Positions 26,331-29,408 of a stretch of 32,737 nt of DNA are shown here, in pieces. The DNA is from a virus. The notes beneath the pieces were generated by a model. It was given only the letters and a program-made list of their open reading frames with translations, was not told the DNA's origin and did not search any database. The position numbers and the translations under genes were made by a program. The stretch lies in the IMG/VR virus record IMGVR_UViG_3300045988_160024. One strand, 5' to 3'. Within the stretch, counting starts at the first letter, position 1, and each line of letters opens with the position of its first letter.

Positions 26331-27893
26331 ATGGGGAAGACGCACATTGCGGACCACGAGACGCTTGAGCGCGTGGCAATCGCGCTCGAATCCATGGGGG
26401 CTTCGACAGTCCCCATTTTTAATGATGAAACTGGACGCTATACGAACTCGAGCATCGCCGCATGGCTCGCAAAGATGCGCGATGGAAAGAATTATGGCGT
26501 CAGTATTCCGAAAGGCAGCTCTACCGCCTGCACGAAGACAGGCGCGAACGCTGGCATCGCCAACCCGAAGCCTGGCGTCATCGGTCGCGCGGCGGTAGAC
26601 CCGTACGTCGGCCACGGCGCGTTTCTCTTCTTCGAGGTGAACGGCGGTGTGGATGCCGACGGCATGCCCTATGTCACGGCGATCGACGGCGATGGCCGTT
26701 TTAGCCGCAAGGATGACACATGGATTCTGACGCCCGTTCTCTACACGCTTGAGACCGAGACCGATGATGCGGTGAACCTCACCGTCTCGGATACGCGCCA
26801 GCCTGGCATGAAGCGCCAGCCCGCCGCGCTGCTTCCCAACGGGGCGCAGCGTCCCTACATGCTTTATGCGAAATACGCCCTGTCGGTCGATGTGGACGGC
26901 AAACCGCGCAGCGTGAGCGGCGCGCCCGTCAAGACCATGAGCGTAAGCCACGATTCGGGCATCAGCCTTATGAAAACGGCCACGACCGGCGATGCGCTCA
27001 AGGTCGCTGCCGATGATTGGTACGTCAAGGCAATGTTTTTGCTCAAGTACGCTACCAAAAACAGCCAGAGCGTCTTTGCCGGTTGCACTAACCATACCGA
27101 GCAGGTCAACCCGACGCTTGCCGAGAGCAACGCTACGCGCGTTGTAATCAAGAAGGCAACGGCTGACGCTATTCCCGTCGGCTCTGCAATGATGTTCGGC
27201 ACGCATACCGGCACCAGCACCGACCGTGGCACCGATTACAACAACGACATCTTCAACGGCGCTAAGGTCATCAAGAAGCTTGCCGTTGACGATGCCAACA
27301 CGGCACTTTATTTCGATGTCCCGAAGCCGTTCAATGTCGAGACCACCTATTACCTCAGCACCGCGCCGTGGAACACCGGCGCTTGCGACATGGTAGAGGG
27401 CGATGGTTCGCCTACCAGCTGCACAAGCGGTCGCGAGCCATTCGTTATGCAGGGCATCGAGCTTGGCTTGGGTATGTATGAGGTTCTTGGTAATGTTCTC
27501 ATCGAATACGCAGGCAGCGGCACCGTCGTCCGGGTCAACCCCGACACCAAGAACGAAAAGTCTGGCAGCATGCCCGATTCGGCGCTAAGCATCGGCGCAT
27601 TCCCTGGCCCTGCTGGTGAAGGCTGGAATTATGGCCTTTTCCCGAAGACCGCCAGCGGCCTGATGATGCAGCAGGGAACGGGCGCGTCAACGTCCGTCGG
27701 CATCTGCGACGGCAACTACAAGGTCGCGGACACCACCGTCGGATGGCGAGAGTGGCTTTCCCTCGGCGCCTTGTGGGACGGGGGCTATGCTGGCCTTTGG
27801 TGCGTCAACGGCAGCAGCGGCACCGGCTACGCCTGGTGGAACGTCGGCTCGCGCCGCTCTGCAAATGGTCGCTCGCGGGGTGAAGCGGCGTAA
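26331..27893 (+). CDS. DGR target protein: receptor-binding / tail fibre protein with C-terminal variable region, 520 aa
   Basis: Last structural gene. The C-terminus WLSLGALWDGGYAGLWCVNGSSGTGYAWWNVGSRR is encoded by VR. This is a C-type-lectin-like DGR variable-protein pattern. Confidence 0.85.
   Translation: MGKTHIADHETLERVAIALESMGASTVPIFNDETGRYTNSSIAAWLAKMRDGKNYGVSIPKGSSTACTKTGANAGIANPKPGVIGRAAVDPYVGHGAFLFFEVNGGVDADGMPYVTAIDGDGRFSRKDDTWILTPVLYTLETETDDAVNLTVSDTRQPGMKRQPAALLPNGAQRPYMLYAKYALSVDVDGKPRSVSGAPVKTMSVSHDSGISLMKTATTGDALKVAADDWYVKAMFLLKYATKNSQSVFAGCTNHTEQVNPTLAESNATRVVIKKATADAIPVGSAMMFGTHTGTSTDRGTDYNNDIFNGAKVIKKLAVDDANTALYFDVPKPFNVETTYYLSTAPWNTGACDMVEGDGSPTSCTSGREPFVMQGIELGLGMYEVLGNVLIEYAGSGTVVRVNPDTKNEKSGSMPDSALSIGAFPGPAGEGWNYGLFPKTASGLMMQQGTGASTSVGICDGNYKVADTTVGWREWLSLGALWDGGYAGLWCVNGSSGTGYAWWNVGSRRSANGRSRGEAA
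27753..27855 (+). repeat. DGR variable repeat (VR)
   Basis: 103 bp aligned without gaps to 27966-28068. All 13 differences are at TR adenines. VR starts in codon phase 1 of the target gene. Confidence 0.95.
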
Positions 27894-27916
27894 GCCGCGA
27901 GGGGGCGCAAGCCCCC
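27885..27916 (+). promoter_or_regulatory. Two tandem GC-rich hairpins with GNRA-type loops just 3' of VR (candidate DGR target-recognition hairpin and/or terminator)
   Basis: GCGGC-GTAA-GCCGC (27885-27898), whose loop contains the target stop codon. GGGGGC-GCAA-GCCCCC (27901-27916), followed by TTCT. Confidence 0.6.
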
Positions 27917-27965
27917 TTCTGTAGGCAAAACAGGGATTCGCGGCGCGCGGGCTGTCATGTTCTCT

Positions 27966-28068
27966 TGGCTTTCCCTCGGCAACTTGAGGAACAGGGGCAA
28001 TGCTGGCCTTTGGTACGTCAACGGCAACAACGGCACCGGCAACACCAGGTGGAACATCGGCTCGCGCC
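27966..28068 (+). repeat. DGR template repeat (TR)
   Basis: Counterpart of VR. It contains 23 adenines, largely in AAC/AAT/AGG codon equivalents (WLSLGNLRNRGNAGLWYVNGNNGTGNTRWNIGSR). It lies between the target gene and the RT. Confidence 0.95.
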
Positions 28069-28190
28069 TATCTGGAAAAACTAACAACCAGCTGAACACT
28101 TCCGCCGCGACTACCCGCCGTGCTGGCAACGAGCGGGCAATGGCCTGGGTCAACGACTGAAATGGCTTTAAGACCACTGGGACAGTAGCC

Positions 28191-29408
28191 GTGTCGGCGA
28201 CCTCTCAGATAGCATCCAGAGAGAAACGGTCTGAACAATTGAAGAGTTATTGCAAAGGGCTCCGCATCGACGGAGCCCTTATTAGTAGAGCCTACAAATC
28301 GTGGCTCGACGCGCCAGCTGGCAAGAAGAACGCCTGGCGCGTGTCCGACGAGCACGGCAGCGCCGAGTCTCTAATTGCAGAAATCGAGAGCGAGATCGCA
28401 TCGCGCACGCTCGCGCTTCGGCCCATCAAGCGCTACAGGCACCGCGAGCCGACAAACGGCAAGCTGCGCATCATCGGCGTCGAAAGTGTCAAGCAGCAGA
28501 TTTGCGACTACGTGGCCATCGAAGCGCTAAGCGGGCTGCTGCGCTCTAAAGTCGGCTTTTGGCAGGTTTCCAGCGTGAAGGGAAAAGGCCAGCTGATGGC
28601 CGCGAACGCCGTAAGCCGCTGGGTTCAAGAGGGAGGTTACTTCGTCCATCTCGACGTTCGCAAGTGCTACCCGTCTATCAAGGCCGATGTGGTCATGCGC
28701 ATCCTTCGCCGCTACGTACGAAGCCCCGACGTGCTGTACCTGTGCGAAACGCTGCTCGCAACCTACGGCGGCGGACTGGAGATCGGCAGCTATTTCAGCC
28801 TGCGGATGGCGCAGTTTGTTCTTTCGTTCGGCTATCACGCCGTAGAAGGCATGCGCAAGGTTCGATGAGGTTGCAGCGTCCCAATGGTGACGCACCAACT
28901 CTGGTACGCCGACGACATCTACCTGTTCAGTCAAGACAAGCGCAACTTGCGAAGCGCGGCGCGGCAGCTGCAAAGGCTGCTGCTCAAGGACTTCGGCCTT
29001 CACGTCAAGCCGTGGAAGGTCTGCCGAGTCGGCGACCAGGAGCCTGTTGACGTCGTTGGCTTCACGGTTCGCCGCAATCGCGTGACGCTGCGACCAACGC
29101 TATTCCTACGCGCGTGTCGAGCTTTCCGCAAATACCGGCGAAGTCCGTCGCTTGGGCGCGCTAGGCGCGTGTGCAGCTATTGGGGCTGGTTTAGAAACAC
29201 AGATTCGCTCGCCTTGGTTGCGAGCAACAGATTCGACAAGACCATCAAACAAGCAAAGCGGCACGTTAGCGCCGCAGAGAGGAAGAGACATGAGTTATCA
29301 GACGGTATCGGCAACGCCACTTGCGGCTGTGCTGATCGAAGCCCGCGCGGACGGCGCGTGCGCCGACGTTTGGCTTCGCAAGAACATCGAGAAGGACGTT
29401 GCAGATAA
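28191..29408 (+). CDS. DGR reverse transcriptase, about 405 codons, interrupted by an in-frame TGA at 28866-28868
   Basis: GTG start. RT motifs GKLRIIG, SSVKGKG, YFVHLDVRKCYPSI and GGLEIGSYFSLRMAQF come before the stop. WYADDIYLF, LHVKPWK, VVGFTV and the thumb (SYWGWFRNTDS) come after it. Track ORFs 28191..28868 and 28884..29408 are in the same frame. Confidence 0.85.

Follow-up and report, generated by a model that had tools for sequence, protein, structure and literature searches.

The cassette and its adenine signature

Positions 26331-29408 of the IMG/VR virus record IMGVR_UViG_3300045988_160024, whose whole stretch of 32,737 nt we call the window, hold a target gene, two related repeats and an interrupted frame for a reverse transcriptase (RT), all read on the plus strand (Table 1). 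A prediction made earlier from the sequence alone (hereafter the original prediction) had taken these parts for a diversity-generating retroelement (DGR), in which a template repeat (TR) supplies changes to a variable repeat (VR), and had concluded that the element implies programmed tropism switching. The DGR identity stands: judged from its sequence, the element is a bona fide DGR, because the VR/TR pair is adenine-specific, the RT resembles bRT of Bordetella phage BPP-1, and the same cassette recurs in about 40 related loci. For this copy, programmed tropism switching cannot be concluded, as a stop codon precedes the YADD box of the RT at a position where relatives have Arg.

A repeat search of the window returned the direct repeat 27753-27865 / 27966-28078, with 86% identity, a spacing of 213 nt and only these two copies. 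The VR and TR within it align over 103 bp without gaps and differ at 13 positions, each an adenine in TR; TR has 23 adenines, and the remaining 80 non-A columns hold no mismatch (hypergeometric P=1.1e-10 for all 13 mismatches landing on the 23 A columns). The original prediction had described this very alignment, which was recomputed exactly, and realignment of the two intervals (27753-27855 / 27966-28068) found no non-A mismatch. It had also placed the variable sites at codon positions 1 and 2 of AAC, AAT, AGG, TAC, ACC and ATC triplets, and this holds for every one of the 23 TR adenines when counted in the VR reading frame. The adenine codons comprise eight AAC/AAT, plus AGG, TAC, ACC and ATC. 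With all adenines at these two positions, adenine substitution therefore never makes a stop codon, and about 1.8e13 proteins are reachable by such substitution at the 15 TR-adenine codons.

The VR occupies codons 475-509 of the 520 codons of the target gene, at its 3' end; TR begins 73 nt past the target stop and ends some 170 nt before the RT start. Past 27855 the two copies differ at non-A positions (G/T at 27856, C/A at 27857 and C/G at 27862), and by analogy with BPP-1 the segment 27856-27865 may be the initiation of mutagenic homing site (IMH) and 28069-28078 its TR counterpart (IMH*). An open reading frame (ORF) of 67 aa over TR (27957-28160), in the VR reading frame and without a family match, exists because TR retains that frame, and gene callers annotate it. 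In one relative (P0001) the TR-spanning ORF is fused in frame to the RT, yielding a 460-aa 'RT' that is an annotation artefact.

Table 1. Features of the cassette and its flanks (window coordinates).
Feature	Position	Strand	Evidence or remark
DGR target gene, 520 aa	26331-27893	+	ORF; phrog_17147 and a weaker 'tail protein' PHROG
VR, target residues 475-509	27753-27855	+	13 TR-adenine mismatches; entropy in homologues
VR 3' boundary, IMH-like, after shared GC-rich GGCTCGCGCC	27856-27865	+	non-A VR/TR divergence
Conserved box GGGGTGAA	27877-27884	+	GGGGTGA box in 23 of 23 distinct homologous segments
Hairpin 1, GCGGC-GTAA-GCCGC, spanning the target stop codon	27885-27898	+	closing pairs covary
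Hairpin 2, GAGGGGGC-GCAA-GCCCCCTT	27899-27918	+	fold conserved in Collinsella-type loci
TR-bracketing helix, 5' strand (GGG..TCGCGGCG)	27933-27945	+	pairs with 28103-28116
TR, non-coding, 23 adenines	27966-28068	+	repeat comparison
IMH*-like counterpart in TR	28069-28078	+	non-A VR/TR divergence
TR-bracketing helix, 3' strand (CGCCGCGA..CCC)	28103-28116	+	pairs with 27933-27945
Structured TR-RT spacer RNA, divergent RF03073 (RT-19) homologue	28110-28209	+	33.3 bits, E 6e-5, model 1-99
RT N-terminal fragment	28239-28868	+	TTG 28239 is the start in most homologues; GTG 28191 alternative
Premature TGA	28866-28868	+	CGA, AGA or CGC (Arg) in relatives
Rest of RT frame, including YADD	28869-29408	+	untranslated barring readthrough or reinitiation at ATG 28884

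A scan for RT relatives, with one genome per species, gave 50 loci. Some 40 of these have a TR 150-200 nt ahead of the RT (280-360 nt in two loci from Clostridia) and, about 210-340 nt further upstream, a VR that closes a gene homologous to the target; their VR/TR mismatches fall overwhelmingly on TR adenines. This target-VR/TR/RT layout is found in Collinsella, Senegalimassilia, Olsenella-like bacteria, Bifidobacterium and Clostridia, in metagenome-assembled genomes (MAGs) as well as genomes. One MAG contig holds two related cassettes (L029 and L031). A search of the INPHARED phages with the cassette DNA produced no match.

Variation among relatives follows the same columns. Across 42 target homologues, entropy is highest, at 2-3.4 bits (9-13 residues), at TR AAC/AAT codons and reaches 0.6-2.1 bits at the remaining TR-adenine codons, while most adjacent codons without adenine are invariant or below 1 bit. 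Every one of the 15 A-codons varies among 13 proteins that share 93% identity or more with the target, with a mean of 4.8 alleles versus 1.13 elsewhere, and protein pairs with 0-3 differences outside the A-codons have 8-11 inside, with the exception of P0311/P0313, which have 0. This population variation stands in for a read pile-up at the level of the lineage only. The closest sibling, L064 (IMGVR_UViG_3300045988_104026), is 98.6% identical over 6.3 kb and differs from the window VR at 14 TR-A columns. Its TR shows a sole change, C-to-T at 27983, which is mirrored in its VR at 27770; this may be a footprint of TR-to-VR copying, an indirect hint that offers a natural marker of the process. In another relative, L002, the TR (5764-5876, corresponding to window 27966-28078) has five differences from the family TR, all at positions that are adenines in other TRs (AGG to CGG, AAC to AGC, AGG to TGG, AAT to TCT), some of them common to the L002 VR. 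Mutagenised cDNA or VR-to-TR conversion may have altered the L002 TR itself.

The RT matches Pfam RVT_1, in a match that crosses the stop once this is masked, and the PHROG 'reverse transcriptase'. When its family profile was compared with solved structures, the best match was Bordetella bRT (8ub7, whose aligned residues are identical to brt of BPP-1), at E 3.6e-9 over residues 23-316 of 328; group II and retron-type enzymes rank below it, the group II GsI-IIC RT matching at E 7.8e-6 in the fingers only. A direct profile comparison with BPP-1 brt (hhalign) gave 96.6% probability, and the RT falls far short of the cut-offs of the NCBIfam models for group II and retron RTs. Judged by profile comparison, the RT thus belongs to the DGR group and not to the retron or group II enzymes. 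Its motif 4 at 28779-28811 (IGSYFSLRMAQ) reads IGSYFSL where the signature of DGR RTs is IGxxxSQ in bRT, so that SL stands for the canonical SQ, and this is invariant across the RT family.

The interrupted reverse transcriptase gene

The RT frame (28191-29408) contains an in-frame TGA 36 nt upstream of YADD (28905-28916) and is listed as two separate ORFs, 28191-28868 (225 aa) and 28884-29408 (174 aa). An RT with a YADD box does follow TR, as the original prediction had it, but not as one ORF: with the TGA ahead of YADD, what this copy has is not an intact, expressible RT gene. All 15 aligned RT homologues (56-96% identical, mostly 350-382 aa, uninterrupted) have Arg at the stop position, in the motif KVRRG. 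At the DNA level the codon is CGA, AGA or CGC in 11 of 13 close loci, and in the other two (L011 and L012) it is too divergent for clean alignment. The sibling L064 reads CGA, one of only 4 nt differences in total between its RT and that of the window. Because the TGA replaces an invariant Arg upstream of the catalytic YADD, the RT of this copy has most likely lost its activity.

Two other readings of this codon were considered and set aside. Recoding of TGA was rejected, as TGA is a normal stop in this genome, ending 5 of the 19 confidently assigned genes of the window, and relatives have Arg at this site. A pattern of CGA/TGA exchange at 28158, 28866 and ~29336 was rejected as well, since among 13 loci only 28866 is unique to the window; the TGA at 29334-29336 ends the RT in some relatives, and several others read CGA there, like the window.

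The cluster table places the exact 225-aa truncated RT on 4 contigs and the look-up of contigs (ENA, Logan) on 5, one of the ENA contigs being a 62-kb scaffold; a 209-aa version with the alternative start is recorded on one JGI/IMG contig. In a second assembly the target and the RT fragment lie on separate contigs, whose names give coverages of 120x and 99x. Wherever they overlap the window, the contigs with the truncated RT are identical to it. The stop is thus derived and recent, and the mutation is probably real. In assembly ERZ1742798, the contigs L052 (window 23331-27977) and L054 (27923-28888) break at the TR start, with a 55-nt overlap, and L054 ends 20 nt past the premature stop; these breaks may reflect population heterogeneity at those sites.

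Relatives with damaged RT genes do occur. Locus L056 (3097-4229) has an RT nonsense codon and a 1-nt frameshift, while L057 (3501-4052) and L058 (291-842), which stem from two sequencing runs, share an in-frame loss of 597 bp from the RT catalytic core, equivalent to window 28629-29225. The VR/TR mismatches of L056 and L057 are still A-only, so the RT losses there are recent; L058 begins after VR. In an unselected set of 111 loci, lesions were found only in L041 (a nonsense codon, with no TR/VR detectable), L116 and L117 (an apparent frameshift, at the same place in both) and L059 (a stop at residue 12, ambiguous). Frequent RT decay in the family was rejected on this count of at most ~4%, and RT loss appears from these sequences to be occasional, not systematic.

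Flanking elements, target and phage

The spacer between TR and the RT gene is a likely structured RNA. It aligns to the full 99-nt model of RF03073 (RT-19), immediately upstream of the RT gene, with a score (33.3 bits) that lies below the gathering score of 78.3, and represents a divergent subgroup, homologous to RT-19 in position and architecture. RF03073 was found at the same position in L040 (3239-3339; 98.9 bits), L046 (3303-3414; 77.7) and L033 (5873-5972; 41.4), of which only the Bifidobacterium locus L040 passes the gathering score; both Bifidobacterium loci, L040 and L046, have adenine-specific VR/TR pairs. RNAalifold on 18 spacers recovered the two RT-19 helices, in which 7 of 13 pairs are compensatory, and spacers of this type share the invariant motifs GAAAU, GGUAG and CCAGAGAG. 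In the study of Weinberg and colleagues, a DGR role was proposed only for RT-10, the BPP-1 spacer, and that of RT-19 was left open, with speculation on other RT motifs (Weinberg et al., 2017; PMC5737381). Our comparison suggests that RT-19 is the spacer RNA of this DGR lineage, which would tie an orphan Rfam motif to DGRs.

A predicted helix of 8 bp (27938-27945 with 28103-28110), extended by GGG/CCC, brackets TR. In a hand-anchored alignment of a small sample, seven lineages, 7 of 9 pairs are compensatory and 85.7% of cells are paired versus 24-48% when the strands are slid, and 0 of 500 shuffles reach the observed pairing. A sigma-70 scan, which is uninformative for this host, found no promoter for a TR RNA.

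Downstream of VR, the conserved box is followed by two hairpins with GNRA-type loops, 30-64 nt beyond the VR end. Nearly all Collinsella-type loci show the two-hairpin fold, and it can still be made out in the loci from Clostridia. Bifidobacterium loci retain the box and hairpin 2 but fold differently, and L048 is without the box. In L033 and L034 the TGA inside the box is the target stop; the box DNA is conserved in coding and non-coding settings alike. Window 27885-27918 is comparable to a GC hairpin, with a GAAA loop, that directly follows mtd in BPP-1. The IMH-like VR end and downstream GC hairpin expected of a BPP-1-type DGR are both present here, with putative functions, and 27877-27918 is a candidate target-recognition element and terminator.

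The cassette appears to lack an accessory gene. No PF05635-like (23S_rRNA_IVP/Avd-type) Pfam match was found in 115 ORFs of 85-260 aa on both strands, phmmer with bAvd against all six-frame window ORFs of at least 50 aa gave a best E of 1.3, and the VR-TR and TR-RT gaps are too short for a gene. The acidic ORF of 122 aa that follows the RT (29290-29658) was weighed as an Avd analogue and rejected, as it has no matches and its composition is the opposite of the basic Avd. The likening to BPP-1 in the original prediction therefore holds for the adenine-mutagenesis signature and fails for Avd, of which none is seen in the window. By its gene content the cassette is of the known accessory-free architecture A, not of the BPP-1 layout (architecture B). 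Architecture A, with TR-RT and no accessory gene, makes up 29% (75 of 372) of catalogued DGRs in a set with few Actinobacteria, and Avd-independent homing has been inferred for it (Wu et al., 2018; PMC5758913). The window shares with it the TR-RT core, the upstream target and the absence of avd, HRDC or any other accessory gene.

Closer in host are the DGRs of Eggerthella lenta prophages, which act on the 3' end of a virion gene, with VR change shown experimentally for DSM2243phi4 (Buttimer et al., 2022; PMC8778435). These are likewise DGRs of temperate phages of the class Coriobacteriia, with a virion gene beside the structural module, and in one E. lenta clade TR lies 'within' the RT gene call, as in P0001 here when callers run through TR. 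Compared by description rather than by sequence, they differ in host genus (Collinsella here) and in that several clades have a putative avd between target and TR, where the window has none. Because architecture A and the E. lenta elements are published, this kind of DGR is already known; the DGR itself is ordinary for gut temperate phages, and DGRs in Coriobacteriia prophages have been described. In the literature we found nothing specific on DGRs of Collinsella.

Beside BPP-1 (mtd-avd-TR-brt), the likenesses are these: TR-to-VR differences are specific to adenines and sit at the 3' end of a gene of tail-fibre type; TR is rich in AAC, its adenines falling on codon positions 1 and 2; the VR has a GC-rich end, followed by a GC hairpin with a GNRA-type tetraloop; TR precedes the RT, from which a structured spacer of ~145-170 nt separates it; and the RTs are homologous over nearly their full length. 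In contrast, the window has no avd and its TR comes directly after the target, 73 nt past the stop; its target has no detectable similarity to Mtd; its phage is a Gram-positive siphophage with a Dit/Tal/BppU baseplate; its RT has IGSYFSL for IGSLTSQ and its spacer RNA is of RT-19 rather than RT-10 type; and the RT gene of this copy is interrupted.

The target gene comes after the genes for Dit, Tal and a BppU_N-like protein and before the holin and lysin genes, and in homologues of 863-907 aa a BppU_N domain is fused to the target protein. Given these fusions and its position as last tail gene, the target is probably a distal baseplate or receptor-binding protein, the last of the tail module, in agreement with the original prediction, which had named it the last tail gene. 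It had no match in Pfam (E up to 10), NCBIfam or the PDB by sequence and profile searches, and hhalign against Mtd gave 0.4% probability, that is, no detectable similarity. AlphaFold2 models of the full-length target and of its last 187 residues, the latter from a more diverse alignment, reach mean pLDDT (predicted local distance difference test) values of 55.8 and 52.2, and in both the VR segment stays below 50 and unstructured; Foldseek returned no match at E <=0.001, a result that is not meaningful at such model confidence. Only the residue pattern of its VR (G-x-L/W, AGLW, ending in IGSR) resembles that of C-type-lectin VRs. Outside VR, its differences from L064 are clustered at 26500-27000 (25 per 500 nt) and 27500-27750 (21 per 250 nt), with 1-3 elsewhere, which suggests mosaic recombination in the putative receptor-binding gene, independent of the DGR.

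The window ends in a 95-bp direct terminal repeat (1-95 / 32643-32737) and therefore represents a complete circular genome of 32,642 bp. A gene for a large serine recombinase of 520 aa, on the minus strand from 1542 to 1 and wrapping to 32622, is absent from the ORF list because it spans the circle junction; its Pfam domains were read from a 99%-identical homologue. A separate tyrosine recombinase is encoded at 7029-8252. The genome also encodes a repressor-like helix-turn-helix protein, SSB, dUTPase and HNH proteins, as well as TerL, portal, protease, capsid, tape measure, Dit, Tal, the BppU_N-like protein and the target; holin and GH25+CW_7 endolysin genes follow the DGR. Related prophages occur in Collinsella isolates and MAGs and in other Coriobacteriia; cultured lysogens whose cassettes are intact include Collinsella sp. 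CLA-ER-H5 (L006) and C. aerofaciens 1033st1_A2 (L020). By its gene content and relatives, this is a complete 32.6-kb temperate siphophage of gut Collinsella (Coriobacteriia). The original prediction of a temperate 32.6-kb phage is borne out by the terminal repeat, serine integrase and repressor, and that of an actinobacterial host by the relatives in Collinsella and other Coriobacteriia.

Status of this copy and meaning for the family

By analogy with BPP-1, mutagenic homing in this lineage would run as follows. A structured RNA containing TR, closed by the helix between the 5' flank and the 3' spacer and followed by the RT-19-type spacer, would be copied by the bRT-like RT with misincorporation opposite template adenines. 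The cDNA would then take the place of the VR in the 3' part of the last tail gene, probably with guidance from the GC-rich end of VR and the conserved pair of hairpins beyond it, and 15 codons would be recoded in a probable receptor-binding tip. In this genome, a recent C-to-T change turned the invariant Arg codon into TGA. We hold it probable that the window carries an accessory-free DGR of a Collinsella phage that is RT-null in this copy, with a VR that is the frozen product of earlier diversification.

Several points weigh against that reading, and most of them speak for an element that is still active, in a phage still switching tropism by UGA readthrough, by reinitiation at ATG 28884 or through an RT acting in trans. 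The status of this copy is judged from assembled sequence rather than from reads, and with zero non-A mismatches between VR and TR, and with the 3' boundary and hairpins intact, an active element would look alike; any inactivation must therefore be recent. Elsewhere the phage seems intact, and its genome assembles into a circle. A GAGG overlaps the stop, 13 nt upstream of ATG 28884, which could allow a two-piece RT with a loss of 5 residues between the fragments, and low UGA readthrough could have a similar effect. A second, intact DGR RT in the host could also serve, as the two related cassettes on one MAG contig (L029 and L031) illustrate. However, the TGA interrupts the palm domain between motif 4 and YADD, relatives show neither a split nor a recoded RT here, and elsewhere in this genome TGA serves as a normal stop. 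Every readable contig with the truncated RT has the same VR, although these contigs possibly come from a single sample, and close relatives have suffered independent destructive RT lesions (the 597-bp deletion; nonsense plus frameshift). On balance we consider continued activity of this DGR unlikely.

The TGA might instead be an assembly or sequencing artefact, or a minority allele caught in the consensus, with the real RT intact and the DGR active. It is a single-base difference from the closest sibling at this site, the contigs that share it could stem from one read set, and the L054 assembly breaks at 28888, shortly past it. The same product was nevertheless recovered from ENA, Logan and JGI/IMG on 4-5 contigs, and in independent assemblies at ~100-120x named coverage a consensus error is improbable; we give such an artefact very little credence. 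That the locus is not a DGR at all, and is an ordinary duplication or recombination remnant beside an unrelated retron or group II RT, is hardly conceivable. The NCBIfam matches of the RT are only to group II and retron models and sub-threshold, and the target is without a recognised C-type-lectin signature, but such a remnant would leave unexplained the adenine-restricted mismatches (P about 1e-10, repeated in ~40 loci), the concentration of population variation in the A-codons, the TR change mirrored in VR and an RT that is closest to bRT.

A bolder idea goes beyond the RT-null reading. RNA may have taken over the role of Avd, with the TR-flank helix as a clamp and with one of the invariant motifs of the RT-19-type spacer as a possible priming site. 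The RT knock-outs (window, L056, L057/L058), for their part, may be more than decay: they may be 'locks' that selection has favoured and that hold a prophage to a receptor specificity which has proved successful. This is speculative, and we think it rather improbable.

With the window, the accessory-free class of DGRs gains a well-documented lineage of Collinsella phages. A perfect adenine-only VR/TR signature stands here beside a broken RT, so that the signature alone is no proof of current activity, and automatic DGR calls and the host-range inferences drawn from them would therefore be wrong for this genome. With ~100 related loci, including intact and RT-null siblings, the family is a compact natural system for DGR function without Avd, and it also offers a covarying TR-bracketing helix, an RT-19 spacer RNA and a conserved double hairpin after VR.

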